A DNA stretch of 64,000 nucleotides from NCBI GenBank assembly GCA_951406725.2, contig OX597817.1, positions 95,852,001-95,916,000 on the forward strand, read 5' to 3'. Below, piece by piece: positions 2,101 through 43,737 of the stretch (the first letter of the stretch is position 1; the number at the start of each line of letters is the position of its first letter). Source of the stretch: Octopus vulgaris. Taxonomy: Eukaryota. The notes under the pieces were generated by a model. That model made no database searches and was not told the origin of the DNA. It worked only from the letters and a program-made list of their open reading frames with translations. Made by a program: the position numbers and the translations under genes.

Positions 2101-2895
2101 TCCACTTAAACATGAATTCCTTTCATGGATTTGATTGTCTATTTGATAGAACTAATCTGTACATTTCAAGCAGTTTTAGGATAATTACTGTGTTCATCGT
2201 ACGTGGCAATGAGAAATCTGCCGGGTTTCATCATTGGTTCTAACTTTATTCATACCACTGTAGAATAAATTATCTTTTGATGCTTTCACTCTTCAGAAGC
2301 TCATGAGTTTAAAGTTACACAACCACCGGTGTTTTTTTATTGATTCATTATATCTGGAGGATTGCCAGCTAAGGTTTAAGAAGCTCTCTCTTGGTGAGAC
2401 GGTACGTCATAATCTCAGGGTAGTTATTATCTAGAAAGTAGTCTAAGGGCGGCGAGTCCGTTGTTTTGTCTGATTTGGTCACTCTGCCACTCATTTAACT
2501 GGATAACCGTGTCGAGAAATTCGTTTCCAGCGGAAGTTTTAATGGTTCCATAATTTTCCACAGAGTTACAATGTCATGTATTTCGTAGAGTAACGTATAA
2601 GTCAAGGAAGAAGATGGAAATATCAATATAGCAAAAGTTTAATATCGAACCACATTATATAGAAATGATTGTGTGTGATTGATTACACAACCCATATTGA
2701 ATAGGGAGGAGTGACACCTCATCACATACTTACCAGCCTGTTCTATTATACATGACGTTTATGAAATCTAAAACTGTATAGGCATGTTAATGAAAAGCAC
2801 TAAGTTCAAATTATTACATAATTTACCCTCGTATTATATTATTTTTATGCTTAACTTGAAATTATATAACGTATAATTACTGCCTTCTCTTACAG

Positions 2896-3489
2896 TATGT
2901 CGAAATATTATGGCTGATGTCTATTTTCTAATGGATTCTTCTTCGAGCATTCGAAAAACTGATTTCAGAAAGCAACTGCATATTTTAAGAAAAGTTATAT
3001 CCAAATTTCAGATAGGATCTAACAAAACACGTGTTGCCGTATCATTTTTTACTCACCAATTCCTTCCTGTATGGAAACTGAACGACTTACAAGATAAATC
3101 AGCGATTCTAAGACGTATTAAATCCCTAAAGTACCTGGAAGGCGCCACAAAAACTGGTTATGCTCTTTACAAAGTAAGAACACAAGGCTTTATATGGCAA
3201 AATCAGCAAAATGCTGATCAAATTTTAATTGTATTTACCGACGGTCAGTCGAGTGATTACAAACGGACGAGATACGAGGCAAAATTATTGAAGCGAAGAG
3301 GAGTTAAGATATTCGTCGTTGGAATTGGTCCCTACGTTGATAAGGAAGAGCTGAATAGCATCGCAAGTACACCGTCCATAGAATATGTGCATACTTTTGA
3401 TAGTTTTAACTCTTTATCAATGACCAGCGGAATTCTGAATGTAAAAGCATGTTCAGCAGTGAAACAGATGTTTTTTAATGACCAAAATG
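2896..3489 (+). CDS. Internal exon encoding a VWA domain (collagen VI/matrilin-like extracellular protein)
   Basis: Polypyrimidine tract plus tacAG acceptor ending 2895; CRNIMADVYFLMDSSSS (MIDAS DxSxS), TRVAVSFF, GATKTG, LIVFTDGQS, KIFVVGIG; donor G|GTAAGT at 3490; phase 1 at both ends. Confidence 0.9.
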
Positions 3490-4116
3490 GTAAGTTTTTG
3501 CTTAAATGCATTTAATGAAATTTTTGTTTTGCAATATAATGAATATAATGTATGTATCATGTATGATAGGAATGAAATTTGTACTTTTATTGTGACGGGT
3601 CATATTTATATCTTGTAATTTCTTTTGAAACTCTGCAAAACAAATTCATTGAAATTTATCAGTGAATATATATGTACTGAATGAACGAGAACTGTTTTGT
3701 GCATTCAGTATGAATTGTTTAGGAGTTAGAATTTACGGAGTATTCTAGATTGCCGAATTTTAAACCGGCGTAATTAGATTCAAATCATATCCTTGTTTCT
3801 TTTCTTAATTGGTAGAAAAAGACTGATATAACATGTTTGTTGACTGCTAGTCACTAGCTGTTAATGATTATTACCTAACTAAATGCTTAATGATACACCA
3901 CCAGGTCTGAGAATCAAACTCACGGCCATATAATCGTGAGTCCAACACCTTAACCACCTGACCCCGTACCTTCATATATATCCTCTAGGTCGGGTTAGGC
4001 CAGGTATGGGAATATGTGCAATTGCAGAGCTTTGCTGCATTCACTATTTGTCGGTATATTCCTGGGTCCTCTCAGGCGACCCGTTGAGTAGAGTCCCAGG
4101 CAATCCCTATCTCCAC

Positions 4117-5361: not shown

Positions 5362-5435
<74 letters not shown>

Positions 5436-5518
5436 GGTCCCGGGTTGATTCGGGGTTAACCACAGTAAATAAGGTACTCAATACATAGCAGAGTAAAATT
5501 AATTTATTATATAGAAGG

Positions 5519-5569
5519 AGCTTCTACAGGACTAGAACTGTTTCATTCAAGAGAAATCTTCAGGAAGCT
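5519..5569 (-). ncRNA. Type I hammerhead ribozyme candidate in the PLE terminal repeat
   Basis: Minus strand: AGCUUC-CUGAAGA-UUUCUCUUGAAU-GAAACAG-uucuaguc-CU-GUA-GAAGCU; stems I and III pair, stem II is weak. Confidence 0.65.
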
Positions 5570-5741
5570 AGTTAACAAGAATTGTATTGGCATTTATACA
5601 TTTAGGCAGGTTTAAAGGGGTGTTGGTGGGGGACTTTTTGGGGGTAGGCATAGCGCGCAAAATATCATACTTGGGGGAGTGGTCAAGGAGTCAGTGTTAA
5701 ATTAGATAGAAGAATAAATAAAAAATAAAAAATAAAAAATA

Positions 5742-5786
<45 letters not shown>

Positions 5787-6207
5787 AAAGGGGGATAGAG
5801 TTTTAGGTAAATAAGGAGATTCTCACTTATACCTATGCACATATGTATACATATATACACACGCATACAAACATATACATATACATACACACATACATAC
5901 ACACACATATATATATACATATATATACACTTACACATACATATACATATCTACACATACACATATATGTATACATACACACACTCACATGCATACACGT
6001 ATACACACATGTATATATACACACACACGACCACACATACATATACACACAGAAAAATATATATACACATACACACACATACTCACATACACGCATACAC
6101 ACACAAATCCACACACACACATGCACACCCAGCACACTAGTCCCTATATACACATATATACACATACACACATATATATATATACATACACACACATACA
6201 TATACAT

Positions 6208-6254
<47 letters not shown>

Positions 6255-6668
6255 CACATGTGTACCCATGCATATCTACACATACACACATATATATATA
6301 CACATACAAATACAGACCCATTCCCTAATTTTAATTTTATTATCTTCGTTTATTACTTTTGTTATCTTTGGCCGCTTGGTCACAAACATCTTGGCTATGA
6401 CAGCCAGTCCATTTATCTGTCTACTGGAAAACAAGCACTCATTCACTCACGCAGACTCTTTAGCACGTACACTCACTCATTCGTACACTCATACACATAC
6501 ACGCACGCACGCGTTATATTAATACATACATACATCTACATACATTCACGTATATACACATACGTACGCGTACCTACAGATTCATGTCTACACTCTTAGA
6601 AGGCTAGTCTATACATATACACCAATAAATATAAATACACACACATACACGTACACCTACATACAAAT

Positions 6669-6745
<77 letters not shown>

Positions 6746-6956
6746 CACATATATACACATATATACATACACACACATATACATACACATATATACACAT
6801 ATACACATATATACACACATAAACATACATACATATACACTCATACACATACATACGTATACATACATACATACATCCATACATCCATACATACATACAT
6901 TTATACACATACACACACCCACATACATACATATATATACGCGCATATATATATCC

Positions 6957-6997
<41 letters not shown>

Positions 6998-7398
6998 CAT
7001 ATATACATATATATTCATACACACACATACACATACATACATACATATACAAATATACGCACACACATACATACATACTCATATACTCATACACACACAT
7101 ACACATGTACATGCGTCCCCTTACACGCACACACACACGCGCGCGTCCATATATACACATAAGTACACCCATGCGTAAGAGTATACATATATCTATGCTT
7201 ACACATACACACACACACACGCGCCTCCTTATATTCATACTTACATGCATACTCAAAAAATAAGTAAATAGTAAAATATATATACGCGCAGTTATTCATA
7301 CATGCATACTCAAAAAATAAATAATAAATAAAAAATATTAAGTATATGTACGTGCAGTTACCTATTATATAGACGGATACATATAAACTTACACACAT

Positions 7399-7468
<70 letters not shown>

Positions 7469-7808
7469 ACATACATACATACACACATATATACACATAC
7501 ACACATACATACATATATATATATACACACACACACACATACACACACACACATATATATATATATATACACACACACATACTTACACATGTACATATAA
7601 ATACACACATAGATAACTCTACGTACCTACATATACATAAACACACGAGCGTACGCCTATATGTACATATACACATACACATACACACGCATATATATAC
7701 ATACATACATACACATACACACATGTGTATACACATACACACACATACACATATATATACATACACATATATATACACATGCACATACTTATATCTCTAC
7801 ATACTCGC

Positions 7809-7859
<51 letters not shown>

Positions 7860-8190
7860 TATATACATACATATACACACACACATACATATACCTATAT
7901 ACATGCATATATACACATACATATATATACACATCTACAATTTGTATCTACACTCACATACCTGCACATACACATAACTCTACATACCTACAAATACATC
8001 GACATACTCGCGTACACTCATATATATACACATATATACATATACACACACACATACATATACATATACATATACATATATATAAACATATACACACATA
8101 ATACACATATACACACACACATACATATATGTATATATATATATATATATATACATATATACACACACATATATATATATACACACATAC

Positions 8191-8221
<31 letters not shown>

Positions 8222-8622
8222 CATACATATATATATACATATACATACATACATACATACACATATACATACATGTACATATACACATACACACACATAT
8301 ATATATACATACACATACATATATCAACAATTGAGGGTAAGGTTAATTAGTTATTAATCAATTTCACCAAGTATTCAGTTGTAAAAGGACCATTATTTTT
8401 ATGAGTAAACAATGTCTGAGGGAAAATATTCTCTAAGTAGTGGAAGAGGCTAAAAAACTTTATTGGCTGCTATTTCTAGAAAGTTCAGTATGCGGCAGAG
8501 TAATTTATTTTACTAAGCCCTAATTATATAATATTTTATACACACATACACATACATACACACATACATATACACATACATATGCATACACACATATATA
8601 CATATATACATACATACATCTA

Positions 8623-8653
<31 letters not shown>

Positions 8654-8888
8654 GCACATACATATATATATATATATATACACATATATATATTTTTTTT
8701 TACATACATACACGCACACACACACATAATACATGCGTATAATCCTACTATACCCATACATTTCTATACATATATACGATACACATATACAAGCGTGCAC
8801 ATACAATATGTGAAAGGTCTTAGGAGAAAAGGTAATCGGGGGTGCTAGGGGAACGGTGGGATTGGGGGGTTTTGTGGGTGGGGTGTCA

Positions 8889-10478
8889 TCAATCTGGTTG
8901 CCGGGTAGGTCTATAGTTCTTGTAGTTCGCATACTTCTTATGCATACAATTTGGGGAGTGTTCTGAGATTTTGTTAAGGAGAGGGCCTTTGGCGAACAAG
9001 ATCTCTAGGCTCTCCGATATGCAGAGGTCACAGCAGGTATGGCCTCCTGTGTACGAGCGCGCCTTCTGTAGTAGTTTCCACTTGGTCTTGAAGGGGATGG
9101 AGTTCCTTTTAAGGTACCAGATGTGGGCGGCGAGGGTAGTTTGGTTGGATTTATCTTGTCGCCGGAACGAGTGTGTGTGTGCGTACCAACGGGTCTTAAA
9201 GCTGTTTGACGTCATTCCTATGTAGGATTTTCTTTTATCGTCAGGGCCTGATCTTACCTCGCATGTATATACTAGGTCCCTCTGTAGGCAGTTGTTGTTG
9301 AGGGGGCAGGTGGTTTTATCAGGGCAGTTGCAATTGCTATCGGACGTTGGATGGGCCTCGGAAAAAGTAGATATGTTAAGTTTTTTCACATTGTTGTTGG
9401 CTAGGTTCCTGGCTAGATTGGGCGTGGTAGAGTAGGAGAGTCTAATAGTGTTCTTATTTAGGATAGTGTAGTACTTATGTTGGGTGGGGAAGTGTTTCTG
9501 TAGGAGAGTGAAGAAGATTTTAGCTACAGGTGTAGCGACCTCACGGTTGAAGGGGGGTTGTACCAGCTAATGTGTCTTCGTCTATTTTTCCTGGGTTGGC
9601 GTGGGGCTATACTAGTATAGGTAATCTTATCTTTGAAGCCACTGCGGGCCAGGGCCTCGTTGTAATAGGGGGCTGCGGCCTTAAAGATATCTTCCGTGGC
9701 GGACAGGCTAGAAATTCTAATTGAGACACTTTTTACTAGGTTATCTAATATATTTTTGGGGTGGTTGGAATTAATATCTATATATTTAAGGGATTCATTC
9801 GGTTTGTGGTACGGGTAATAAAGTGAGGTTTTTAAGTCGAGGGTGACATCAAGGAAGTTAGCTTTAGTTAAGTTGGATTCTAAGGTAATCCTAAGGCCTA
9901 AGTTTTTAAAGAAGGTGTAAAGATTTTTCCGGAACCCATCCGTGGTCCTGGGGTTTATTTTGTGGAGGGCGAAAAGGCCGTCATCGCGGTAAAGACCACC
10001 GGAGAGGCCTGTGAATAGGGTTTTCAGCCTATGGAGGATGAAAAGGCCCACTAGGTCACTTATTTCAGCAGAGTCGTTAGCACCCATGCTGACGTCGAAG
10101 GGGGTCACAGATTTTTTGTTGATCCAGTGGGATCCGTCATAGAAAAGAAAAGTCTTACGTGCGTGGAGTATCACATCTTGCTCGACCTCGGTGATGGTGG
10201 AAGACCTCCTGGCGAAGTTAATCGAGTCGATCAGCAAGCTCTCCGATATGGAGGCGTAGTAATCCTCGATATCCAGTTGTAGGAATCGGGTGTTGCTTTT
10301 ATCAGGTAAATCCTGGAACCAGGTTATTGCCTCGGAGGTCCTATTCCAGAGTGGGAGGGTGAAGCTTCACGCATTTTTGGTAAAATCCTGTCCAGGATCT
10401 TCTTGCTGACGGATCCGATGTCAGACTTGGTTGGGTTAATCAAACGGACCGACGGTTTATTTTCGAAATGGTCTTTGT
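8889..10478 (-). pseudogene. Penelope-type reverse transcriptase + GIY-YIG endonuclease, two frameshifts
   Basis: [93 protein letters not shown]; frameshifts near 10360 and 9545. Confidence 0.92.
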
Positions 10479-10558: not shown

Positions 10559-10624
<66 letters not shown>

Positions 10625-11348
10625 ATGTGTGTAAGTTTATATGTATGTATCCGTCTATATAATAGGTAACTGCACGTACATATACTTAATATTTTTTATT
10701 TATTATTTATTTTTTGAGTATGCATGTATGAATAACTGCGCGTATATATATTTTACTATTTACTTATTTTTTGAGTATGCATGTAAGTATGAATATAAGG
10801 AGGCGCGTGTGTGTGTGTGTATGTGTAAGCATAGATATATGTATAATCTTACGCATGGGTGTACTTATGTGTATATATGGACGCGCGCGTGTGTGTGTGC
10901 GTGTAAGGGGACGCATGTACATGTGTATGTGTGTGTATGAGTATATGAGTATGTATGTATGTGTATATGTGTGTGTATGAATATATATGTATATATGTAT
11001 ATGTATATAATTAATCAATATAGGGTGGCAAAAAAAAAAAAAAAATTTTGTAGAATTCTTTTGCCACCAGCGGCCTAGTGGGAAAAAATTAAATAGTCAT
11101 AGACCATTTTTAAGTTCAACATCAACAATCAAGGAACGGCCATAATAGGCCATTTTAGGCCATTTTTTTTGCCACCCTATATTGATTAATTATGAATTTT
11201 CTGGTTAATTCCGTAATGGAATCGACGGCTTATATTTATTTGCTGCCGATAAATTTGGCGCGAGTGCGACGATTTGAAAATTTTAGGTCAGATATAAACT
11301 TGGCAAGGTCGGAAATGCCTCGTGAAAATATCTGTTCCGACTTGGGCT

Positions 11349-11455
11349 ATTTCTTACTGAAGAATCTGAGGGCCTGTGGAAGATTGGCTTGATTTAATTT
11401 AATCAGGTTAGTTTACCATTAATCAGCAGATGAAACGGTATATCGTATAAGAAAT
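11349..11455 (+). ncRNA. Type I hammerhead ribozyme, variant A
   Basis: AUUUCUUA-CUGAAGA-AUCUG...CAGAU-GAAAC-GG-UAUA-UC-GUA|UAAGAAAU; predicted cleavage after 11447. Confidence 0.88.
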
Positions 11456-11845
11456 TACAGGGTAAATGTTTTTTAAATTTTCTCCTGGTTTACGGAATTA
11501 ATTTTTATTTGCGGTTGAAGCTTTGGCTGTTATTTCTAGTGGGTGAATGGCCTATTATGGCCGTTCCTTGATTGTTGATGTTGAACTTAAAAATGGTTTA
11601 TGACTATTTAATTTTTTCCCACTAGGCCGCTGGTGGCAAAAGAATTCTACAAAATTTTTTTTTTTTTGCCACCCTATATTGATTAATTATGAATTTTCTG
11701 GTTAATTCCGTAATGGAATCGACGGCTTATATTTATTTGCTGCCGATAAATTTGGGGTGAGTGCGACGATTTGAAAATTTTAGGTCAGATATAAACTTGG
11801 CAAGGTCGGAAATGCCTCGTGAAAATATCTGTTCCGACTTGGGCT

Positions 11846-11952
11846 ATTTCTTACTGAAGAATCTGAGGGCCTGTGGAAGATTGGCTTGATTTAATTTAAT
11901 CAGGTTAGTTTACCATTAATCAGCAGATGAAACGGTATATCGTATAAGAAAT
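11846..11952 (+). ncRNA. Type I hammerhead ribozyme, variant A (copy 2)
   Basis: Same sequence as 11349-11455. Confidence 0.88.
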
Positions 11953-12077
11953 TACAGGGTAAATGTTTTTTAAATTTTCTCCTGGTTTACGGAATTAATT
12001 TTTATTTGCGGTTGAAGCTTTGGCTGTTATTTCTAGTGGGTGAATGGCCTATTATGGCCGTTCCTTGATTGTTGATG

Positions 12078-12116
<39 letters not shown>

Positions 12117-12236
12117 ACAATCAAGGAACGGCCATAATAGGCCATTCACCCACTAGAAATAACAGCCAAAAGCTTTAACCGCAAAATAATGTCAATTCCG
12201 TAAACCAGGAGAAAATTGAAAAACATTTACCCTGTA

Positions 12237-12343
12237 ATTTCTTAGACGATGCACCGTTTCATCTTCAGTTTAATGGAAAACTAACCTGATTAAATTAAAT
12301 CAAGCCAATCTACCATAGGCCCTTAGATTCATCAGTAAGAAAT
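12237..12343 (-). ncRNA. Type I hammerhead ribozyme, variant B
   Basis: Minus strand: AUUUCUUA-CUGAUGA-AUCU...AGAU-GAAAC-GG-UGCA-UC-GUC|UAAGAAAU. Confidence 0.9.
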
Positions 12344-12729
12344 AGCCAAAACCGGAACAGATATTTTTCACGAGGCATTCTCATTGCTACCTCGTCAATA
12401 TCTGACCTAAAATTTTCAAATCGTCGCACTCGCGCCAAATTTATCGGCAGCAAATAAATATAAGCCGCCGATTCCATTACGGAATTAACCAGAAAATTCA
12501 TAATTAATCAATATAGGGTGGCAAAAAAAATTTTGTAGAATTCTTTTGCCACCAGCGGCCTAGTGGGAAAAAATTAAATAGTCATAAACCACTTTTAAGT
12601 TCAACATCAACAATCAAGGAACGGCCATAATAGGCCATTCACCCACTAGAAATAACAGCCAAAAGCTTTAACCGCAAAATAATGTCAATTCCGTAAACCA
12701 GGAGAAAATTGAAAAACATTTACCCTGTA

Positions 12730-12836
12730 ATTTCTTAGACGATGCACCGTTTCATCTTCAGTTTAATGGAAAACTAACCTGATTAAATTAAATCAAGCCA
12801 ATCTACCATAGGCCCTTAGATTCATCAGTAAGAAAT
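12730..12836 (-). ncRNA. Type I hammerhead ribozyme, variant B (copy 2)
   Basis: Same motif 493 bp from the previous copy. Confidence 0.9.
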
Positions 12837-13223
12837 AGCCAAAACCGGAACAGAAATTTTTCACGAGGCATTCTCATTGCTACCTCGTCAATATCTGACC
12901 TAAAATTTTCAAATCGTCGCACTCGCGCCAAATTTATCGGCAGCAAATAAATATAAGCCGCCGATTCCATTACGGAATTAACCAGAAAATTCATAATTAA
13001 TCAATATAGGGTGGCAAAAAAAAATTTTGTAGAATTCTTTTGCCACCAGCGGCCTAGTGGGAAAAAATTAAATAGTCATAAACCATTTTTAAGTTCAACA
13101 TCAACAATCAAGGAACGGCCATAATAGGCCATTCACCCACTAGAAATAACAGCCAAAAGCTTTAACCGCAAAATAATGTCAATTCCGTAAACCAGGAGAA
13201 AATTGAAAAACATTTACCCTGTA

Positions 13224-13330
13224 ATTTCTTAGACGATGCACCGTTTCATCTTCAGTTTAATGGAAAACTAACCTGATTAAATTAAATCAAGCCAATCTAC
13301 CATAGGCCCTTAGATTCATCAGTAAGAAAT
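13224..13330 (-). ncRNA. Type I hammerhead ribozyme, variant B (copy 3)
   Basis: Same motif 494 bp from the previous copy. Confidence 0.9.
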
Positions 13331-13588
13331 AGCCAAAACCGGAACAGATATTTTTCACGAGGCATTCTCATTGCTACCTCGTCAATATCTGACCTAAAAT
13401 TTTCAAATTTTCACCCTATATTGATTAATTATGAATTTTCTGGTTAATTCCGTAATGGAATCGGCGGCTTATATTTATTTGCTGCCGATAAATTTGGCGC
13501 GAGTGCGACGATTTGAAAATTTTAGGTCAGATATTGACGAGGTAGCAATGAGAATGCCTCGTGAAAAATATCTGTTCCGGTTTTGGCT

Positions 13589-13695
13589 ATTTCTTACTGA
13601 TGAATCTAAGGGCCTATGGTAGATTGGCTTGATTTAATTTAATCAGGTTAGTTTTCCATTAAACTGAAGATGAAACGGTGCATCGTCTAAGAAAT
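13589..13695 (+). ncRNA. Type I hammerhead ribozyme, variant B (inverted copy)
   Basis: CTGATGA at 13597, GAAAC at 13672, GTC at 13685-13687, stem I atttctta/taagaaat. Confidence 0.9.
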
Positions 13696-14167
13696 TACAG
13701 GGTAAATGTTTTTCAATTTTCTCCTGGTTTACGGAATTGACATTATTTTGTGGTTAAAGCTTTTGGCTGTTATTTCTAGTGGGTGAATGGCCTATTATTG
13801 CCGTTCCTTGATTGTTGATGTTGAACTTAAAAATGGTTTATGACTATTTAATTTTTTCCCACTAGGCCGCTGGTGGCAAAAGAATTCTACAAAATTTTTT
13901 TTGCCACCCTATATTGATTAATTATATATATATATATATATATGGATATATATATGCGCGTATATATATGTATGTATGTGGGTGTGTGTATGTGTATAAA
14001 TGTATGTATGTATGGATGTATGGATGTATGTATGTATGTATACGTATGTATGTGTATGTGTGTATATGTATGTATGTGTATGTGTGTATATATGTGTATA
14101 TGTGTGTATATGTGTATATATGTGTATGTATATGTGTGTGTATGTATATATGTGTATATATGTGTGA

Positions 14168-14227
<60 letters not shown>

Positions 14228-14641
14228 ATTTGTATGTAGGTGTACGTGTATGTGTGTGTATTTATATTTATTGGTGTATATGTATAGACTAGCCTTCTAA
14301 GAGTGTAGACATGAATCTGTAGGTACGCGTACGTATGTGTATATACGTGAATGTATGTAGATGTATGTATGTATGAATATAACGCGTGCGTGCGTGTTTG
14401 TGTATGAGTGTACGAATGAGTGAGTGTACGTGCTAAAGAGTGTGCGTGAGTGAATGAGTGCTTGTTTTCCAGTAGACAGATAAATGGACTGGCTGTCATA
14501 GCCAAGATGTTTGTGACCAAGCGGCCAAAGATAACAAAAGTAATAAACGAAGATAATAAAATTAAAATTAGGGAATGGGTCTGTATTTGTATGTGTATAT
14601 ATATATGTGTGTATGTGTAGATATGCATGGGTACACATGTG

Positions 14642-14698
<57 letters not shown>

Positions 14699-15116
14699 AT
14701 GTATATGTATGTGTGTGTATGTATATATATATATGTGTGTATGTGTATATATGTGTATATAGGGACTAGTGTGCTGGGTGTGCATGTGTGTGTGTGGATT
14801 TGTGTGTGTATGCGTGTATGTGAGTATGTGTGTGTATGTGTATATATATTTTTCTGTGTGTATATGTATGTGTGGTCGTGTGTGTGTATATATACATGTG
14901 TGTATACGTGTATGCATGTGAGTGTGTGTATGTATACATATATGTGTATGTGTAGATATGTATATGTATGTGTAAGTGTATATATATGTATATATATATG
15001 TGTGTGTATGTATGTGTGTATGTATATGTATATGTTTGTATGCGTGTGTATATATGTATACATATGTGCATAGGTATAAGTGAGAATCTCCTTATTTACC
15101 TAAAACTCTATCCCCC

Positions 15117-15154
<38 letters not shown>

Positions 15155-15338
15155 TATTTTTTATTTTTTATTTTTTATTTTTTATTTTTTATTTATTCTT
15201 CTATCTAATTTAACACTGACTCCTTGACCACTCCCCCAAGTATGATATTTTGCGCTATGCCTACCCCCAAAAAGTCCCCCACCAACACCCCTTTAAACCT
15301 GCCTAAATGTATAAATGCCAATACAATTCTTGTTAACT

Positions 15339-15389
15339 AGCTTCCTGAAGATTTCTCTTGAATGAAACAGTTCTAGTCCTGTAGAAGCT
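15339..15389 (+). ncRNA. Type I hammerhead candidate in the inverted pLTR (mirror of 5519-5569)
   Basis: agcttc-CTGAAGA-tttctcttgaat-GAAACag...ct-GTA-gaagct. Confidence 0.65.
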
Positions 15390-15398
15390 CCTTCTATA

Positions 15399-15430
<32 letters not shown>

Positions 15431-16559: not shown

Positions 16560-18340
16560 TTTCCTTTTTGGTAAAACATTGCACACGGCTGTCTGTATTA
16601 AGTTTCAAGTCAAGCTTATGAAGAGATAAACCTGGATAATTTACTACTTGTAATTGGTCAACAACAGTGTCAATAGATCTATATGAAGGTACATTAACAG
16701 ATCAAAGTTTATTGCATTCACTGTTATATTTTTCGGGGCTAGAATTGCTCTTTCACTCAACCATTTGCGATCCTTATGTTGTGCACTGAGATTTGGAAAA
16801 ACTTTGTTTATAAGTTTTTTTTCTGATTTTACCATTGGATTTATTGCACCGTCATTGTCTACAAGTACTCTTCCTTCTCTCAGTCTTGAGCAAACTGCTC
16901 AGATAATCTATCACCTTGGAGATATGCTCGCATATTTGTTTCAAGCTTCAGTACTTTCACGCAGTACCAGATGCGTGAAGATTTAAAGCATGCACGAATT
17001 TCCTCAGATTTCGTTCCCTTTGGAATAATTGGAAGGGTTCGTCCAAAATCACCAGGTAGAACAACTGTCACACCTCACATTGGAGCATCACTATTTCGAA
17101 TATCTCGCAATAACCTATCAACAGCTTCAACGGCTCTCCTCCTGGGGTATCTAGAAAGAATATTCCACCTTTCCGTGCCTAATGTTGTCAACAACTGCTT
17201 CGTATGCCTCTCTTTGATTTGGCAGTAGCTTTCATAATTTGCAAAATTATCAATGTTGTGATTTGTTTCTCTGGGCACTTCAGATGTTAGTCTGTTTTCA
17301 TTGCCATGAGTAACTTTAGGAAGCCCGTAATTCTGGAGCACTTCTCCAATAGCCAGGAATTTGCCTTCTATGTTAATCAATACACTATTGTACTCAAAGC
17401 AATGTCAGGTAATCTCTGTGCACTTGATGCATATCATTTTCAGACAGTTCATCTTTATACTTTACCCATAAGCTGTTTGAATAACCAATTTCATAGTTTC
17501 TTTTTAATATAATAGCAAACAAGGAGCTAAGACTACTTGCAATATGAGATACGAAACCCTCAGAAAGTTCCATGTCCCATTGAGAGTCATCTTCCAGTAA
17601 TCCAAGCTGAGGGTCAGCTTCACGATAGGTTTGACAGGTAGTATCATTAACAGTCCTTAAAGCATCGAAGGTTGTTGAACTCTTTCTTGTATGAAACAGC
17701 ATCCTTAAGTAGACACATTCATGTTGATTAGGGTGAACTGTATAAACTCTTCCAAGAGCACCGTCAAATCTGATATCGGGATGATTTTCAACAAGAGCTC
17801 CTCTTTTTCGCCTCTTTCATTGCTTATCATCCAATGTGTAGCAAAATGGTAGCTAGTATCAATAAATTGTCCTTGCAAATAGATCATCACGGCAAAGTTT
17901 GAAATAAGCTGTTTGAGTAGTTTCTTTAGGAACCAATGATTGTCGAGCGGCAACTGTTGACTCGGTGGATAATGTTCATGTATTGGAAATCCAAATATTC
18001 TCCAAAATGCTTCATTGCTGATGATGTATCTGCCTTGTTGATATATACTCACTTCATCTTACAGATCTGTCTTTGTAGATTTTGAGCTGCTCTATTTCTC
18101 TCCATTTGTTGTCTTGATGATTTTCGTACAGCTGATTCCTGTTGACGAATAGTTGCTGTTATTATCCTATCATCAGCATGTCTTTTTGCTCTTAGTTTTT
18201 TCTGATTCATTTTTGTCCTTTTTCTTTCTTTTTAGAGTATTTCTTGTTGCTACTTTTCACTTTCATTCTCACTTTGTAGCTGCATTGTCCTAGCTTCATG
18301 AGACTTTCTTCCAAATGAAGGCCTTTTCTTCGGTGGCATT
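16560..18340 (-). mobile_element. Decayed, internally deleted Helitron (Rep/Pif1 helicase relic)
   Basis: Fragments GRYIISNEAFWRIFGFPIHE, LRTVN..CQTYREA..LGLLEDDSQW, EAVDRLLRDIR, VLPGDFGRTLPIIPKG, WLSERAILAPKN. Confidence 0.85.
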
Positions 18341-23199: not shown

Positions 23200-24079
23200 G
23201 GAGGAAGAATTCCGTAATAAATATGAAGAGAAACTTAGAACTACAATAACTACAACCTATATAGCCCCATAAATATAGAGTTAGGCTATAATAATGGATA
23301 TCTATTACTAGTTTTTCAGAGATAACCAAATATGAAGTTACTAAAATAAAGATTATTCGCAGTAACTAACACGTAGATGTCCCTATATACGTATATTATG
23401 GAAGGAAGATCTCAGTAAATAAAATAGGATAAGCAAAAACAAGAGTTGAGTATCTACCCACCATAAGATGTAGTCAATATTATTTTTTTTAGATAAAGGA
23501 CTATAAATAGTATATATACAAACCTAGACTTAACTTTGACATCTCATTAAACCTTAAATCCGGATTATACTATCCCTACAGGAAACTAAATGAAATCACT
23601 AAATATGTTAGCAAATTCTCCAATCACCCCACCTCCTCCGTTAGCAATTCTTTAGCTAAAAGTATTCCATGTAGAATTACGCAACTCTCGATGAATGAAG
23701 ATATTTTCAATTCATACTCTCATTTTTACAATTCAGCTCTTTCTAACGCAAGATATAAACCGTAAGTTGTATATGAAATCTCTGCTGCCACTGGCTCATA
23801 TATTAGCAATGACATGTGTAGTGGGGTGCAGATGGTGATAGTAATGTAGTGGCACGTGGCCGTCTAAGTAAGAGAAATCTAGATGACGTTATCACTCCGA
23901 CTTCTATAAATTCTGGCAGAAATATAGGCCTAAATAAATCACCCATAATTAACAATGAATCACTTAGAAAAAGCATGGTTATTGATGATATTAACCATTC
24001 AAATGGGGATACTGGTATAAAAAAATTCGGTAAAAATAAAGGCAGTAAAAGTAAAAATCTAAATAAAAATGATAAAAAT

Positions 24080-24118
<39 letters not shown>

Positions 24119-27100
24119 AATAATACATTACTTACATTATTTATATTTGACGGATATTCGTCCTCATCTTGTTTGTTGTTAACACATTTTCGGCTGACAT
24201 ACGAGGGGCGTTCAATAAGTAATGCCCCTGACCCACTTCCCATAGAAGTAGAGCAACGAAACTTGGCACAGTTATTAGTCTTTTTCTACATAGAAACCAA
24301 CCAGAGTTACGCATTTCTACCATCGTTTGATGCAGCTCTGGAGACCGTTTTTGTAGAAGACCCCAGCTTGGTCCTCCAACCACGACGTGACGTCAGAAAT
24401 CAAGGCTGCATCATCTGGGAAACGCTTTCCTTTCAAAAACAACTTCATGGCTGGGAAGAGGTGAAAATCCGAGGGTGCAAGGTCAAGAGAGTAGGGGCAT
24501 GGGGGAGGAGTTCATAGCCGCACGCCTGTGCTTCTGATCTGGCGACCATCGAGTTGTGGACCGGAGCGTTGTCCTGCAGGAGGAGGATGCCTTTGCTGAT
24601 CTTGCCCTGCCTCTTGATTTTGATAGCTTCTCTTAATTTCCTCAAAAGTGAAGCATAATAGGCTCCTGTAATTGTGGTACCCTTTGCCAGGAAATCTGTC
24701 ATCACTACTCCGTCCTGGTCCCAGAAGACTATGAGCATGACCTTGCTAGTGGGGGGCTGCACCCTTGCCTTCTTTGGAGGAGGTAAGTCACGGTGCTTCC
24801 ACTGCATTGACTGGACTTTTGTCTCTGGATCATAGTGATGGACCCAGGTTTCATCCTGTGTAATCAGTCTTTTGAAAAATGTTGACTCATCTTCTTGGCA
24901 CATCTCCAAATTCATCCTCGAGCACTCGACGCATTCTTGCTTCCGGAAAGGTGTGAGCAGCCTGGGAATCCATCTGGCAGACACCTTTTGCATATGCAAA
25001 TGGTCATGAATGATTGGTTTCCACAGACCTGGTACTAATCTTGACCTCGTGGGCTATTTGCCGAATAGTTATGTGTCGATCTTCCAAAATGGCAGCCTCA
25101 ACTTGATGGACAGATGCCTCATCAATAGCACTAGGGGGCGACCAGATCTGGGAACTGTTTCCACAGAGTTCCGACCATGTTTGAATTCACAATGCCAGCG
25201 TTTTACAAGGGCATATGATGGGGCATCCTCACCATAAGTTACTTTTATTTCATCAAAAGTCTCCCGTGGTGTGCATCCTTTCAAATATAAAAAGCGGATC
25301 ACTGCCCGACACTCAACAGGCTCCATTTCACACTTGACTCAGTTCAAACACCTGTAAATCAGAAACCACAATTAGTTCAGAGCTGTAATTTACTACTTAA
25401 TCTATAGAGATATATATAATTGCACATGCAACATTTCAGCTAGATCAAACAATTGCAAGTGGGTCAGAGGCATTACTTATTGAACGCCCCTCGTACCCTC
25501 CAGCCTTCATCAGGTGTCTTGAGGAAATTTTGAACCTGGGTTCTTATTCCTAAGGTATTTTTTGATGTTGCTAATATTATTAAAGTCACTGCCTGGAATA
25601 GAACTCGGAATCTTCGGGTTAGTAGCCCGCGCTCTTAACCACTACGCCATATGCTCGTGGGCATATTTAGGGAATTTACTTGAATAGTATGCATTTATAT
25701 CAAATTGAAGGAACGAGAACGTCTATTCTGTAATGATGTAAACCAGGATAGGACTTCCTTAGTGTTAGACCATAAATTAACGTCAATTTTTGGAGTAAAT
25801 TTAGGTATGATCTTATCTAGGATAGACTTACTAAGCCGGCCGATATCCGATCTAGTGGGGCATATGAGTCCAACGGCAACAACACAAATGAAAATCGAAA
25901 TAAAAACAAAAGTTCTTCATACAAACCCCAAACTAATTATAAGAATAAGAAGCGTAGCGTACACAAAGGTAAAAACGGGAATAAACGTGGCGTAACATGG
26001 TATAACCCACCCCCTTCAATTACATAATAATATTAATATATGTAGAAAATTATTTAGTATACTAAAGCGCAATTTCCCTCCTTCACACAAATATTACCGT
26101 TTATTCTCCCGCAGAAATGTTAAGGTATCCTACTCAACTCTCCCAAATCTAGGTACAATTATAGCTGGCCTGAATAAAAAGCACATATCCGTGGCCGGAT
26201 ATTAAGAATAATACTCCTAACAGCACCGCTCTTAATAAAAATTGCAGTAAGAATAACCATGATAATAATGTTAATATTCGTCGTATTACAACAATCTCAA
26301 TCGACACTAATACTGTACACACCAATACGAACAGCGAGCAAGCCCTACCAATTAGTAGATATTATATTGGCATCAGTCAGCCTGCCATACAAGGGATAGT
26401 AGCAGTAATAACTCTGCCACAACAACTCATGGTAGTAGGAGTACTGATTCTACCAGATTAATCTAACACCATACCACTCCCTACAATCCTAAAACTCTCT
26501 CCGCTAGCTGTAAGGACCACCCATCTACTTCCATTCATGTTGTCAATATGCTCAACGCACAGAACATTAACACTTGTGCTGAAAAATTTTCCGTTATATC
26601 GCCCACCCTTGTCTCTCTAGTGTCACTATCTGGAAGCGAAATCTCTTATTACAATGCTCAGTACCAACATTCTGCGACCCTGGGCACGGTAACTAATTAT
26701 AATGGTATTGATATTAGTAATATAAACCCCGGTAACAACCATGCGAACACCAGTAACTCCCGCGAGCTTGAACTATTACACCATAATAACGTAGGATCGC
26801 GTACCCGTAATAACAAGTTTCATGTCTTAGAAAATATTGGGTGCAATCGTTTAGACACAATGTCAAGTGTGGTGTACAAGTGTAATGTTGTGACGGAAAC
26901 CGATACTTATATTTATATCGGTTGCTCCATAAATCTCAAGGAGCGCTTACGTAAACATTATTCTTCATTTAAATTAAGACATGGGGCAGGCAGGAATTCT
27001 CTAGTCACGAAGATTTTGGAGCTTAAGGATGACAATGTTAAATTTGATTTGAGTTGGGACATCATTAGGGTCGCTAAAGTGCACTCGAACAACAGATACG

Positions 27101-27200
27101 GGTGCAGGCTTTGCTGCATGGAGCTGTTTGAAATTCTAATAAATAACCAATGAGACCGTCGTCTTTCCTGTATACATAAGGCTACCCGCACCTTTAAATA
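23200..27200 (+). mobile_element. Old fragmented Penelope-like element (RT relic ~23200-23760, GIY-YIG ~26850-27180) interrupted by other repeats
   Basis: PYRKLNE..KYVSKFSNHP near 23575; HKYYRLFSRRNVKVSYSTLPNL near 26085; VVYKCNV..YIYIGCSINLKERLRKH..CRLCCMELFEIL. Confidence 0.75.
24202..25493 (-). mobile_element. Mariner DNA transposon, 1292 bp, frameshifted transposase
   Basis: TIRs cgaggggcgttcaataagtaatgcc..; TA TSD at 24200-24201 and 25494-25495; HTH region RAVIRFL..VKRW..FK.GR, WIPRLL, ITQDETWVHHYDPE, LLQDNAPVH. Confidence 0.95.
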
Positions 27201-28161: not shown

Positions 28162-31100
28162 CTAGCAGAATTGCCCGGCGTTGCTCGGGGCTGAATTGCT
28201 TGAAAGTACTGTTAATGATTGCACTGAATTATGATGATTATTCAGGCAAATATTGATATAAGTTTACGGCGAATGAATGTATTTGTAAGTGTATAGAAAG
28301 CCGTGTAAAGGTGTTCCTACCCCCTCGTAGAATGGTGTAAGAATTGAATGCGAGGTTGCCTTGAAAAGAGCCATGTTATTGTTCTCATAATTGTAAGAAT
28401 TTGATAGTCGTGGAAGGTGATGTAAAACGTTCGCAGGTGAATAGGGTCTCTTCGTTTTGCACGAACGGCAGCGGATGTGCTGTTACAAAACTTGATGCTG
28501 TGTTAAAAGAGAGTGGATTTCATATGTAGGCAAGAGAGGAATGAAGCATGGGTAAGTAAATATGTGTAATTTATAAAATATAGAACAATAGCATCTACTC
28601 ACCATATGTCAGACCGGCAAGACTGTAGTGGTGCTGATTAGGTGAATCACAATACAATGGTGGAGATGTTTTCATTGGTGGGCGTTTTGATTAAATTTGT
28701 TGTTGTATAAAATGATCTGTTGATTAGTTTCGAAAGTGTATGTTGCGATCGTGTTGTCGCTCATGTAAACTTTAACAGTGAGAGTGTAGATGTAGGGGGT
28801 AGATGTGTCATGTACGTTGGATATAGAAGATGAGGCTGGTGGTTTGATGATGAATGGATAGAAATAGAGTTGAGCGAAGGACAGGTGTTGGTTAAGTGTG
28901 AGTTAATGTTATGAAACGCCTAGAAATGTAAATGCCGTCATAAAAGAGAGTCGTATGTAAGTGAAATACTAACGTGTTTGAAAATGATGAAACGTAGTAA
29001 TCCTATAAAACCTCCTTGTACACAATGTTTTTTGTTTTTCGTTGTGGAAGGAATGCGAAAGCATCACTGTTGCTGCCGACACGCGAGCAGCTAACATAAA
29101 GCTGACCATGAGAGAAACATGGCTCTCCCAAATGTATTCCTGCCACAGACAGTGTTTGATCCTGCGCTTTGTTAATTGACATTGCGAAACATGACCTTAC
29201 TGGGAACTGGGACCTCTGAAATATGAAAGGTAGGTCTGCTCCTGATGGGAAAAGATGCATCCTAGGTATGAGCACAACGTTGCCTCAACCGCATCCTGTG
29301 ATAATGGTGGCCTCAATCAGATTGGGAGATAAGGACTTAACGATCAAACGTGTGCCATTACATTGTTTTGGGGAACCAAATTTCTAATGAGCATTATAGG
29401 GGCACCAACTTTAAGTTTGAGAATGTGTGGTGGTAGTCCGGGGGGGCTCAAAGGAATTGAGTACCTCTATTGGATAATTGATGACGTCGTCTGGGTCAGG
29501 AGTTGTATCGATAGACTTATATACATAGACATCCCCAGGAATGAGTTTTAGCATTTCATCATTAATATGGTGAACAGTTTTATTCCTCGGGGCCAGAATA
29601 GCCCTTTGGCCAATCCAATCCATATTCTGATAATTAGCTTGTAGATCTGGGAATACTGCATCTCTGAGATCAGAAGGCGTGTTAACAATGGTACAAATGG
29701 AATTGATGGCAATATTACCATTTTCATCCCCTGGTATTTTGCCTTCGCCAAGTGCAAGGAGGGTGTGAGAAAATGCTGCTGATATGATATCACGTCGCAT
29801 ATGAGCACGCATATTGGTGTGAAGTTTGAGAGTCTTCACCAGTGGCCACAATGTGGATGACTTAAGACACGCACTTACAGCATCAGCTCTAGTCCCTTTG
29901 GGAATAACGGGAAGTGTTTGTCGGAAGTCCCCTGAAAGAAGAAGTGTTATGCCTCCCATGAGAGCTGAAGAGTGTTTGATGTCTCTGAGAGATCTATCTA
30001 GTGCCTCAAGAGCACCTCTGTGGGCCATCGTGCATTCATCCCAAACGATAAGCTTGCATCGTCTGAAGACTTCTGCCTGATCGGAGCTGTTACTGATGTT
30101 GCAAGTTGGTGTCTCAGTCTTCGCTAAGTCAAGTGGGAGTTTGAAAGTAGAGTGAGCTGTCCTGCCACCTGGCAACAAAGTAGCCGCAATTCCAGATGAT
30201 GCCACAGCTAGGGCAATGCCTTGTGTTCGCCTAATCTCAGCCAATATTAATTTGTTGACAAAAGTTTTCCCAGTGCCCCCAGGAGCGTCCAGGAAAAAAA
30301 TGTCCCCAGCTTTGGCCCGGACTGAATTAACAACGGAGTTGTAAGCGAACTTCTGTTCTGGAATGAGCTTTGGCTCATTGTCGGCTATGTACTCGGCAAG
30401 CTCGTCAACATTAAAACATGTCTCACGCAGCAAATGTGAAGACAGAGTGTTTGTGCCTTCCCGGTTTGTTGAAGGTAGGCCATAGACCGGCAAGGCACTA
30501 CCGCCCATATCGAGTACAGTATCTTCGATTTCAAGCAGCGCCCTGTTGTAAATGAGGTCAGTGTACCCCACCTCCATTGATGGATGTAGCGATTGAGCGT
30601 GACGTAGGAAATCTTCAGACATATCATCTTTGTAGGTAAACCATAAAGAGGCGGGATTAGCCAAGTCACACCATAGTAATAGAATAGCGAAAAGCGATCT
30701 GATTTTTTTAGGAGATTTTAATGAAACACCTTCTGCCATAGTGGCGCCCCATTGTGAATCATCCTCCAAAAGTCGACGCCGAAAACAGGCTTCACGGAAA
30801 GTATCACATAATACACCATCAACAGTTCTGATGTCTTGAAAACTTTGTGGGCCTAAAACCTCATGGAGGAGAAGGCGCAGGTGAAAACAGTCATGTTGGT
30901 TTGGAGGTACAGTGTAGACTCTTCCTAGACAACTGTTAAACTTGACACCAGGATGTCCTTCAACATCCTGACCCGACTTCCTACGCACCCAATTGTTGTT
31001 TGACCACACGTAGTAGGACGGGACCTGAGGGTATAAAAGTGTTTTAGCAAATGTGCCAAGTTGGCAAAGCCTAAAGAAACCGGTCAAAGTTGTTTGTTTT

Positions 31101-32560
31101 GGATTTGCCGCCAAATCAGCTGCAGTCTGTTCAGTAAAGTAAGTTCGTTGGCCATTTTCCAAATGAACCGCTAGTTGTATGATGGCGGGGTGCCTTTGGT
31201 GAAGTGGAAACCCGAATATCCGCCAAAAAGCTTCACCACTGCTTATGTACCGACCTGCCATGTACTGTGACACCTCGTCCATGCTATTGTCCTTTTGAAG
31301 GCCAAACATGGCAGCGTCAGAACCCTTGTTAACATATTTACATATATACTTTATAGACTTGACTGAATGACAGAACTCCACATTTATGTGAGCGTTAAAA
31401 GTTTTCATCAGAAATGGACAGTACGGCACTACCCACCTATTATCCACTTGATGACCCCGTAACGTTATAGTGAATCCACCATTGTCAGGTTGCCTTCTTC
31501 TGTACAGTGGGTATCCGTCGCGGCCGGTCTGGGTCTCGTCCACGAACCTCTTTGGGTACCGTTTAGTGCACACGTGGTCTTTGTGGCATGAGGAGAACTT
31601 TTGAAAACCAGGAGCGCACGGACCGTGTACCATGTGTGCCTTCACAATGTCGTACAGCTGCCGGTTAACAGTTGGGTCCGGAATTTCTGCTGCAATGAGA
31701 TCATCAAGAACTGTTGGGTCTATTTTGTTGACCAACCAAAGCAAAATGTGCGCGTGTGGCAACCCTCTTTTCTGCCACTCAACAGTATACATGTGGCAGT
31801 TAACAGGCCGAAAAACCTGTTTTTTTTTATTAAAAGAATGAGCTTAGCCAGTTTCTGCCTGAAAACCCTTGCAATAATATCATGGCGATGATAGTACTGC
31901 TGCCCTGGGAAAAGTTCTCGCGTTACCTCAACCCACTTTGGGTTACATGTAAAGGTAATGAATAAATCGGGTCGCCCATAATGCCGAACGTAAGTAATAG
32001 CGTCTTGTGTTCGCTCGTGCATGTACCGTGGGCCCCCTATATAGGTTGAGGGGAGAATGCACATTTTGCCGATATTGCGGGCGTCAGTGTCATTCTTGGT
32101 GAATGAAATGTGGAAAAATGTAAACCGTGGAAGGAAAAGAAATAAATATTAGCAGCTGAAAGAAATTTTTTATGCAAGTATAGCGACAGAGTGTGTAAAA
32201 TGTATAGAAATTTGAATTAAAAGCCAGAAAAGAAAGTTAGATTTGCAAGAAAGGAAGTAGTTTACGTACATGTTCGAAATGTGAAGTGCTGTTTAATCAA
32301 ATATTTGCGTAAAGTGTATAGAAACGTAACTTGAAAAAGATAATGAATTGAAATTTTTAAGAAAGGAATTTGTTTACATACATGTGTGAAATGGCAAATG
32401 TTTGTGCAGTTGTCCGAAATGGAACCAGGGTAAATGTGTGGAACTGATGTATTATAATGAATAGTCCTTCTTGAACTGAAAACCAGTGGTGTAGCATATA
32501 AGAGCATAAGAGATCTTCTTCTAGCCAAAATGGATGACTAGTCTGAATGGCTCACCCCTG

Positions 32561-33298: not shown

Positions 33299-33538
33299 TA
33301 TATATATATAACAATAATGGAGGATAAAACTTTAAAAAAAAATTATCAGTGGCCAGCATATAAAAGGAAACCGATTAAGCTGAAATTATATGTATAATTA
33401 TAAGGGCTCCGAAAGAAATTTTTTAGCCTATATGCTGGAAAATAGACGCTAAATCGTTTCACCACTCAAAGAATTCACAAACACATGTGCTGAATTTGAC
33501 GCAACAAGCCAACGGAAATTATTAATAAAATAGATAGC

Positions 33539-33591
33539 CCTGTATCAGCTAATTTCTGGATCTGCCCAATGGATCTTCCGTCTTCAGCAGG
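33539..33591 (-). ncRNA. Hammerhead-like motif in a TA-flanked repeat (about 33310-33870)
   Basis: Minus strand: CCUG-CUGAAGA-cGGA..UCCa-GAAAU-UAGCUG-AUA-CAGG; stem II closing pair mismatched. Confidence 0.5.
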
Positions 33592-33935
33592 ACATGCTTA
33601 AGAAATAAAAAAAATATTTATTTATACTTACAGGAAAGCAAAACCCCAAATACATATAAAAACTCCAGATACCTTAGAAATGAATTTCGTAGCTTGCCTC
33701 AACAATATGTCTATTCGGTCGCCATAGCAGTTAGGTAGCTATGCTGTCCCGAAGTGAAGAAATTTTTCAATTACAATAATAGGGGATAAAACTTTTTAAA
33801 AAAGTTTGTGACTTCTTTGAGTGGTGAGACATATAGACTAGAAAATTTCTTTTTAAGTCCTTATTATAATTATACATATAATTGTATGTGTGTATATATA
33901 CATATATATATACATACATATATATATATACATAC

Positions 33936-39750: not shown

Positions 39751-40274
39751 TGTATGTATGTATGTATGTATGTATGTATGTATGTATGTATGTATGTATG
39801 TGTGTATGCATGCATATATGTGTCTGTGTGTGTATGTATGTATGTATTTATGTATGTATGCATATATGTACAGACATATACACATCATATATAATTTATA
39901 AGTAGATATGTTTGTTACCCAAATAAATGCCCAATATTCGTAGGTATAAATCTGATATTACAATCCTAGGCAGTAAGTTGTAAATCTAATATTTACCACT
40001 AGTATTCGGACGTCTGCCTGTATTACTCACAAACTTTTACCAACTACTAATATTTTATGCAAAACACTATTAACCTTATAAATTTTCATTTCAACATTTA
40101 ATGATTGAGAGAGAAAAAAAATCTATACGTATATACGTAAGTGCAGTAGTCGGCAAGATTAACCTGGCGTTATGCTATTTGAAACTTATCTTCGCTAAGC
40201 ATTTTAGAAAGTGTCTGAACATTACAGCTTTTTATTTTTATTTTGAATTAATGTTTACTCTATTCTCATTTCAG

Positions 40275-43625: not shown

Positions 43626-43692
43626 TACAGCCTTAGCTGTGATAATAGCTATGTAAGATATAAACACCTGTTTATAATATACAACATTCTCT

Positions 43693-43734
<42 letters not shown>

Positions 43735-43737
<3 letters not shown>

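Follow-up and report, generated by a model that had tools for sequence, protein, structure and literature searches.

How did six hammerhead ribozymes come to lie together at positions 11008..13925 of a 64,000-nucleotide stretch of Octopus vulgaris DNA, and what machinery copied the tandem units that carry them? The stretch (contig OX597817.1, positions 95,852,001 to 95,916,000) is referred to as the window, and coordinates are positions in it. A sequence-only reading of the locus had assigned the units to a metazoan retrozyme without long terminal repeats (a non-LTR retrozyme) copied by Penelope-like elements (PLEs). This is still the best reading, and the anatomy of the insertions supports mobilization by a PLE far more directly than the letters of the locus did. 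The footprints described below indicate a young, non-autonomous retrozyme family that is very probably mobilized in trans by a (TA)n-targeting PLE, most likely one of the Hydra clade.

Hammerhead ribozymes in the tandem units

Both strands of the whole 64-kb window were searched with a hammerhead descriptor. Exactly six type I hammerheads were found at descriptor stringency, all within 11008..13925, and they are the same six that the sequence-only reading had picked out, with the same stems, cores, and cut sites. The cores are at 11357, 11854, and 13597 on the plus strand and at 13322, 12828, and 12335 on the minus strand, and the cuts fall after 11447, 11944, 13687, 13232, 12738, and 12245, respectively. 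The measured spacings of 497, 493, and 494 bear out the 493–497 bp first claimed. Stem I has 8 bp (ATTTCTTA/TAAGAAAT), and stem II is 68 nt long with the hairpin quoted in that reading. The CUGANGA, GAAA, and GUH elements noted there appear as a conserved core of CTGAAGA (two hammerheads) or CTGATGA (four) plus GAAA, and as a cleavage triplet of GTA (two) or GTC (four). The hammerheads at 11357+ and 11854+ define subtype A (CUGAAGA, GUA) and those at 13597+, 13322−, 12828−, and 12335− define subtype B (CUGAUGA, GUC); the monomers of the two subtypes are 91% identical. Each tandem unit carries a type I hammerhead with an intact core, in the window (6/6) and in the 258 copies with intact flanks at the loci retrieved from the genome. 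The monomers are 493–497 nt long with a GC content of 36%. The unit is thus short, tandem, below 50% GC, and non-coding, as had been proposed from the lack of a conserved open reading frame; the longest ATG frame in a doubled unit is 63 amino acids. There is no LTR pair (a primer-binding site and a polypurine tract were not searched for).

The Rfam search that had been suggested as a check gave a divided answer. In a 161-nt stretch, positions 13591-13693 matched Hammerhead_1 (RF00163) with 20.4 bits and an E value of 0.0088, below the gathering score of 34, and the model takes the long stem II for an insertion. A scan of 7 kb yielded microsatellite and palindrome noise only, with no match to a hammerhead. 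The fold of the circular monomer beats 40 dinucleotide shuffles (z −3.2 for subtype A and −6.0 for subtype B), and the predicted hammerhead fold lies 1.7–3.2 kcal/mol above the minimum-energy fold. Stem III had been described simply as short. It is indeed a weak hairpin (−0.2 kcal/mol, about zero alone), but its 12 nt are fully self-complementary, and pairing between two copies gives −13.6 to −17.5 kcal/mol. Because of this energy difference, the likely mode predicted for the retrozyme hammerhead is dimeric cleavage through the palindromic stem III. Dimeric hammerheads are reportedly the subject of Lunse et al. 2017. Dimeric cleavage is established for hammerheads with such stem III motifs (PMC4209133).

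Conservation and covariation were assessed with 23 distinct hammerhead variants from subfamilies A, B, and C. The core is unchanged in all of them except at the free N7 position. Two-sided changes are found at four stem I pairs, at the closing pair of stem II (A-U to G-C), and at two pairs of the stem III palindrome, which is 100% paired across the variants. Covariation is 0.154 compared to 0.094 in shuffled and at most 0.059 in slid alignments. Stem II ranges from 66 to 78 nt across the family. The palindrome is broken by a central AC in 1 of 35 motif clusters and in one copy at locus L107, and subfamily C pairs poorly at three positions of the proposed structure. Other, unrelated hammerhead families at the retrieved loci have a self-complementary stem III too, and their stem II is often long (51–75 nt). 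A looser descriptor also picked up a hammerhead-like motif at 33530-33595 on the minus strand (core at 33587) with a 24-nt stem II and a 10-nt palindromic stem III.

Two insertions in a host element

The locus had been described as tandem blocks. The tandem units are there; however, they do not form one array but two adjoining insertions, one of subtype A and one of subtype B, each with a minus arm and a plus arm. Unit positions are counted from the hammerhead cut, and on this scale the arms end at site A (~+132) or at site B (234–243, ~+239), ~107 nt apart. Insertion 1 (subtype A) has an inverted arm of 0.29 unit (11007..11154, minus) whose 3' end is site B against (TA)n, and a direct arm of 1.84 units (11163..12078, plus) whose 3' end is site A against (TA)n. 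Eight extra bases lie at the junction of the arms (11155-11162). The direct arm contains hammerhead 1 (11349..11455, plus; CUGAAGA, 68-nt stem II, palindromic stem III, cut after 11447), hammerhead 2 (11846..11952, plus; cut after 11944), and one 497-nt monomer (11448-11944, plus). A (TA)n run at 12079..12112 separates the two insertions. Insertion 2 (subtype B) has an inverted arm of 2.62 units (12113..13408, minus) with its 3' end (12113) at site A. This arm contains hammerheads 3 (12237..12343; CUGAUGA, GUC, cut after 12245), 4 (12730..12836; cut after 12738), and 5 (13224..13330; cut after 13232), all on the minus strand, and one 493-nt monomer (12739-13231, minus). The direct arm of ~1.05 units (13409..13925, plus) ends at site B against (TA)n and contains hammerhead 6 (13589..13695, plus; cut after 13687), the one matched by RF00163 at 20.4 bits. 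In this arm the site A module (13773..13819, plus) is a conserved hairpin followed by a short U-rich spacer that ends at unit position ~132, and the site B module (13871..13925, plus) is the conserved hairpin of the sequence-only reading followed by a U/A-rich spacer that ends at unit position 234–243.

Both insertions lodge in (TA)n of the inverted arm of a host element, H1 (10560..15408, plus), which they split and which has its own hammerhead core at 15345. H1 is a 5'-truncated Hydra-type PLE. Its direct arm (5429..10478, minus) has a microsatellite-rich pseudo-LTR and a hammerhead core at 5563, and keeps the matching (TA)n as an empty site without arrays (6945..7025, minus); the flanks of the two sites are 95–97% identical. 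The empty site in the direct arm shows that the arrays are later insertions and not part of H1. A target-site duplication is unreadable within (TA)n.

Copy number and the two ends of the insertions

The genome (2.8 Gb, 227 contigs) was searched for exact matches to a 27-nt motif over the 3' half of the hammerhead, with the reversed pattern as control. This copy number check, also suggested with the sequence-only reading, gave 2,484 exact copies genome-wide and none for the reversed control. The first 100 of the 2,484 matches fall into 35 clusters by hand count, which extrapolates to ~870 loci, and all 15 clusters with both strands among these first 100 matches have the minus arm first. The best copies are 97–100% identical and are spread over at least 20 contigs. 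We examined 61 loci: 40 of subtype B (39 retrieved plus one in the window) and 21 of subtype A (20 plus one in the window). Five were scored as single-armed and 56 as two-armed. The 3' ends point outward against (TA)n in 56 of the 56 two-armed loci, and in 53 of them an arm ending at site A is paired with one ending at site B. The same rule is found in subfamily C, which is 76% identical: both ends are seen in 11 of its 16 loci, and all 11 are A+B on opposite strands. One of the remaining loci combines B with an atypical end and four show one end only. A hairpin conserved in all three subfamilies precedes each of sites A and B, which lie ~13–20 nt 3' of it. Predicted folds of subtypes A and B place both modules inside one long-range helix. 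The unit has TATAT runs at positions 224 and 277 that do not serve as ends, thus the insertion ends are not set by the best (TA)n match.

The 5' ends behave differently from the fixed 3' ends. They are uniform round the unit (117 ends, Kolmogorov–Smirnov p 0.29) without a pile-up at the cut, and the cut-site junctions with intact flanks have the same length in 258 of 258 copies. The idea that 5' ends at the cut mark linear cleaved templates was unsupported: 10 of the 117 ends lie within 12 nt of the cut compared to 5.9 expected (p 0.07). Enrichment at positions 1–20 was unsupported as well (6 compared to 4.7 expected, p 0.34). The inner junctions, where the arms meet, are distinct between loci for all 53 pairs. 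Scored by BLAST overlap, 35 of the 53 have shared bases (mostly 1–10), 4 are blunt, and 14 have extra bases. The A-end arm is the longer one in 22 of 53 loci and the B-end arm in 31, arm lengths are not correlated (Spearman −0.16, p 0.25), and the longest arms have 8.4 and 10.4 units. None of the arms continues into the junction or flank of a parent array at the 53 junctions, where typical arms are shorter than two units.

These statistics bear on the idea that the arrays are a satellite or minisatellite amplified as DNA by unequal crossing-over or DNA circles, in which the hammerhead-like sequence is a relic. Local amplification of retrozyme units has been proposed (10.64898/2026.07.22.740005), and changes that recur with a period of two or four units in L031, L049, and L044 could be local duplications. 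However, the copies are spread over at least 20 contigs, their 3' ends are fixed and their 5' ends random, the arms are inverted, the targets are (TA)n, and an empty site is present; these are the marks of target-primed reverse transcription. In addition, the RNA stems covary. The end statistics appear to largely refute amplification as DNA, which we regard as very improbable. The A- and B-ended arms follow the PLE 'tail' rule and fit one RNA primed twice, from both target strands.

The template of each insertion

Haplotypes were compared between the arms of 37 two-armed subtype-B loci. There are 0 mismatches in 379 comparisons at 13 diagnostic sites compared to 21.6% for permuted pairs, and none of 2000 permutations was as low. 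Arm-wide variants are common to both arms in 56 of 58 cases, and 11 of 13 locus-private arm-wide variants are found in both arms. Many haplotypes are spread among the loci.

A shared haplotype is trivially explained if one cDNA folds back, primes itself, and is copied, with the endonuclease trimming the copy at the other site. Self-priming has been proposed for PLE inverted repeats with palindromic junctions (PMC3846280), and 4 of the 53 junctions are symmetric, at palindromes or hairpins. The model fits less well because either arm may be the longer one (22 compared to 31, with uncorrelated lengths) and the junctions are for the most part strongly asymmetric. Of 41 unit-private changes in long arms, only 1 recurs at the mirrored place in the short arm, a comparison of low power since these are mostly post-insertion changes or sequencing errors. 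Fold-back also leaves unexplained that the second end is always the other site, and both sites are reverse transcriptase (RT) starts in vitro in an anole element (PMC11167929). We consider fold-back improbable.

Sequencing runs containing the retrozyme stretch carry three organism labels. Four runs were compared as contigs, from which ends, strand, and level are unreadable. A DNA run of a second organism label has a very high summed depth over the retrozyme stretch. Two presumed-RNA runs have low depth with TA-flanked or adapter ends, and a third has higher depth and may be DNA. A read end seen in two presumed-RNA runs was followed up and led to subfamily C, not to a parent element.

The second question about the template is its form. 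The same PLE twin priming could work on a linear multimer that is left uncleaved and is transcribed from a small number of long master arrays, or on template-jumping monomers, and the hammerhead, inherited from a pseudo-LTR, would then have no role in forming the tandem arms. In the anole system, uncleaved RNA is the main template in vitro and the data show no reads ending at the cut (PMC11167929). Non-autonomous elements of Chlamys without a hammerhead still give head-to-tail multi-copy insertions. The distinct mutation sets among the units of one arm (L049, L056) and the low depth of the two presumed-RNA runs also agree with a linear template. In contrast, 0 of 53 junctions are common to two loci and no parent junction or flank is found in the arms, which are typically shorter than two units. 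The spread of many haplotypes means that many long masters would be needed. Core and stems are intact, with compensating changes, over 25% divergence, and the unit has no other reason to keep them. A linear template is possible but rather doubtful.

We lean towards a closed circle, formed by hammerhead cleavage of tandem transcripts and ligation, as the template, with the multi-unit arms as rolling-circle products. A circular template would explain why arms contain several units, why no junctions are inherited, and why the ends take no account of the cut site. In the proposed mechanism the tandem transcript would be cleaved as a dimer through the palindromic stem III. A PLE protein, probably a dimer, would bind the structured domain with both hairpin-plus-spacer modules of one RNA and nick both (TA)n strands. 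One cDNA would be primed at A from one strand and the other at B from the opposite strand, each would extend for 0.1–10 units, and the two cDNA ends would be joined at short homologies. The anole PLE cuts and extends both strands, two internal RT start sites define its genomic tail, and it is predicted to be a dimer (PMC11167929). This chemistry fits the footprints, with the added constraint of one site per strand on one template. The complete model, in which a PLE RT-endonuclease dimer works on one 493-nt circle with one module per nicked strand and both cDNAs roll independently, is tentative. If it is true, a single mechanism accounts for the PLE tail, the inverted arm, and the tandem copies, with the retrozyme as a natural minimal template, and the long-stem-II dimeric hammerhead is a Hydra-type ribozyme variant missed by standard Rfam scans.

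Several points weigh against mobilization of a cleaved, circular RNA by a PLE as set out here. The anole PLE dispenses with the hammerhead in vitro and uses uncleaved RNA as the main template, and its start-site use is alike on both strands (PMC11167929), whereas the retrozyme nearly always uses its two ends one per arm. Only 1 of 9 predicted frog retrozyme dimers was cleaved in vitro (10.64898/2026.07.22.740005). The mutation sets differ among units within one arm in L049, L056, and L031, thus a single monomer circle fails to explain these mixed-unit arms. Assembly polishing might inflate the likeness of neighbouring units, the covariation comes from few independent changes in related sequences, and the loci are the best BLAST matches, which biases them to young, long copies. 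Three two-armed loci depart from the A+B score: L064 ends at B and at position 102; L100 was scored A+A, with a second arm that reaches the B motif via a deletion; and the second arm of L105 is broken. Among the stretches of H1, L071 and L089 are off the two-end rule and L086 is near it. The retrozyme unit has no extended DNA similarity to the pseudo-LTRs of H1 or of two further PLE families, H2 and H3, the best match being 17–21 nt. Finally, the contigs of the three presumed-RNA runs cover the unit without a start or end signal.

Periodic changes are seen in L031, L049, and L044, where they recur at each second or fourth unit within an arm. They could reflect dimer or tetramer templates or local duplications. 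Dimer circles were considered as their source; the pattern is mixed and not decisive.

Candidate helper elements

Autonomous elements with DKT and/or CxCX5C motifs and long open frames that end in (TA)n are abundant in the genome. H1 is young and abundant, with frames of up to ~720 amino acids; the copy in the window has a broken RT-GIY-YIG frame (8889-10478, minus). In its hammerhead (5525-5570 and 15340-15388), a U-U pair closes the 12-nt stem II, and stem III is a 16-nt imperfect palindrome. The H1 pseudo-LTR is ~3.4 kb long and mostly microsatellite. Relative to its own cut, H1 has its ends at +23 or +96, and the two kinds of end are on opposite arms in 7 of the 10 stretches that show both. 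H2 and H3 were found via three old GIY-YIG fragments of the window; 9 of 20 chosen long-frame loci were retrieved and 7 of these have such a frame. Both families have long open frames and hammerheads with a 57–60-nt stem II and a palindromic stem III shortly before the (TA)n end. The motifs were read from translations: DKT is in H1 and H2 (H3 copies are 5'-truncated), CxCX5C is in all three, and all three have a C-terminal GIY-YIG motif, hammerheads, and (TA)n targets. Pfam recognized neither RT nor GIY-YIG in two full PLE frames; in the window fragments it gave no RT match and one weak GIY-YIG match on an old fragment. By motifs, hammerhead, and target, H1–H3 appear to fit the description that Craig et al. 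give of the Hydra clade.

The autonomous families of this genome bear hammerheads of the same build near their ends, as would be expected if an autonomous PLE with a short pseudo-LTR had left the arrays as 5'-truncated stubs of its end. However, the unit joins onto itself in as many as 10 head-to-tail rounds, and truncated stubs would show no 493-nt repeat. The arms are bounded by (TA)n on the outside and by the other arm on the inside, and the unit is not continuous with an RT-endonuclease frame. We find the end-stub idea hardly credible. H1 was rejected as the parent, with only a 17–19-nt match to the retrozyme unit, and no alignable pseudo-LTR was found among 70 loci of older PLE fragments.

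Several observations on these elements stand by themselves. A 200-nt non-repetitive island in the H1 pseudo-LTR (8325-8540) has short motifs in common with the retrozyme: in one orientation there is a 17-nt match, in the other there are motifs like sites A and B. Possibly the island is an old captured insertion of a relative. The RT-endonuclease frames of H2 (~1,070 amino acids) and H3 (L180:2972-6241, L184–L186) have long asparagine-rich insertions, as described for rotifer Penelope elements (PMC3846280). Hammerheads with a 54–75-nt stem II and a palindromic stem III lie near old GIY-YIG fragments at L111, L112, L115, L118, L134, L148, and L160, and a long stem II seems to be common among the TA-targeting PLEs of this genome. 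A second, unrelated retrozyme-like family sits within an H1 element (L076:6750-8420) as two inverted arms of a ~535-nt unit in (TA)n, and its hammerhead has a 51-nt stem II and a palindromic stem III.

Relation to known elements

Non-LTR retrozymes have been described in mussels, corals, and amphibians (Cervera & de la Pena 2020, PMC7229834), and across vertebrates, where they are tied to PLEs by co-occurrence and pseudo-LTR similarity (Li, Clavereau & Pollet 2026, 10.64898/2026.07.22.740005). Like the octopus unit they are tandem, non-coding, a few hundred bases long, and low in GC with one type I hammerhead each, and like the octopus family they have thousands of copies with PLEs in the same genomes. 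The octopus unit had been called a rather large monomer, a claim weakened by the consensus lengths of 51–972 bp in the latter study, among which ~495 nt is not unusual. The nearest described molluscan case is the mussel repeats of 350–390 bp with ~5,000 hammerheads (PMC7229834). The octopus family differs in its 66–78-nt stem II, its 12-nt palindromic stem III, its strict two-armed A+B anatomy, and its (TA)n targeting, an arrangement undescribed in the main texts of PMC7229834 and 10.64898/2026.07.22.740005. Cleavage and circular RNA are demonstrated for the described animal retrozymes and are predicted for the octopus family. The dimeric hammerheads of newt satellite 2 and of PLEs share with the retrozyme a weak stem III with a palindromic loop that pairs two copies; the retrozyme has a longer palindrome (12 nt), a much longer stem II, and an 8-bp stem I (PMC4209133).

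The insertion anatomy also has a precedent. Endonuclease-bearing PLEs carry an inverted, 5'-truncated copy and a 'tail' on one end (Arkhipova et al. 2013, PMC3846280; Craig et al. 2021, PMC8557442; Frangieh et al. 2024, PMC11167929), and in the retrozyme an inverted, 5'-truncated arm with a tail on one end only is found at 53 of 56 two-armed loci and at 11 of 11 subfamily C loci. Head-to-head arms, two fixed 3' ends off the ribozyme cut, microhomology joints, and an AT-rich target are common to both. The retrozyme tail is ~107 nt compared to the 30–40 nt usual in PLEs, and the retrozyme has no protein frame and arms of up to 10 whole units. All families of the Hydra clade target (TA)n and carry hammerheads (Craig et al. 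2021, PMC8557442). The retrozyme shares both properties, but it is non-coding and unalignable to the autonomous H1, H2, and H3.

No description of a cephalopod retrozyme, of this family, or of such retrozyme anatomy was found in the literature, within the main texts of the papers searched (most subscription papers, supplements, and repeat databases were outside the scope). The element class is already described and similar anatomy has been noted for PLEs; what is new is the family, the variant ribozyme, the longer tail, and the insertion statistics. The family bears on how PLEs build tandem and inverted insertions and on whether they copy animal retrozymes from circular RNA, and it adds direct genomic footprints: a retrozyme that obeys the PLE tail rule, a single start site for each target strand, a single haplotype within each insertion, and arms that reach ten units. 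The RNA is short and young, and long open Hydra-type frames are present alongside it in this genome, which makes the twin-priming and circle steps testable in vitro. The gain is mechanistic detail and a test system rather than a new kind of element.

Other features of the window

Exon-sized frames at 2877-3515 and 40247-40870 on the plus strand resemble what we take to be von Willebrand factor A domains, which suggests that the retrozyme region lies either within an intron of one host gene or between two genes of this kind. Remnants of other PLE families, old and broken, are at 23535-23774, 25678-27153, 43678-44124, and 49475-50226. Frames at 29411-32148 and 17075-18058 (minus) are presumably Helitron-like Rep/helicase frames, and a fragment at 24445-25053 is assumed to be a mariner-like transposase. 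Two elements at 35229-39241 and 58930-62017, with endonuclease and RT frames interrupted by stops, are taken to be LINE-like (long interspersed nuclear elements).

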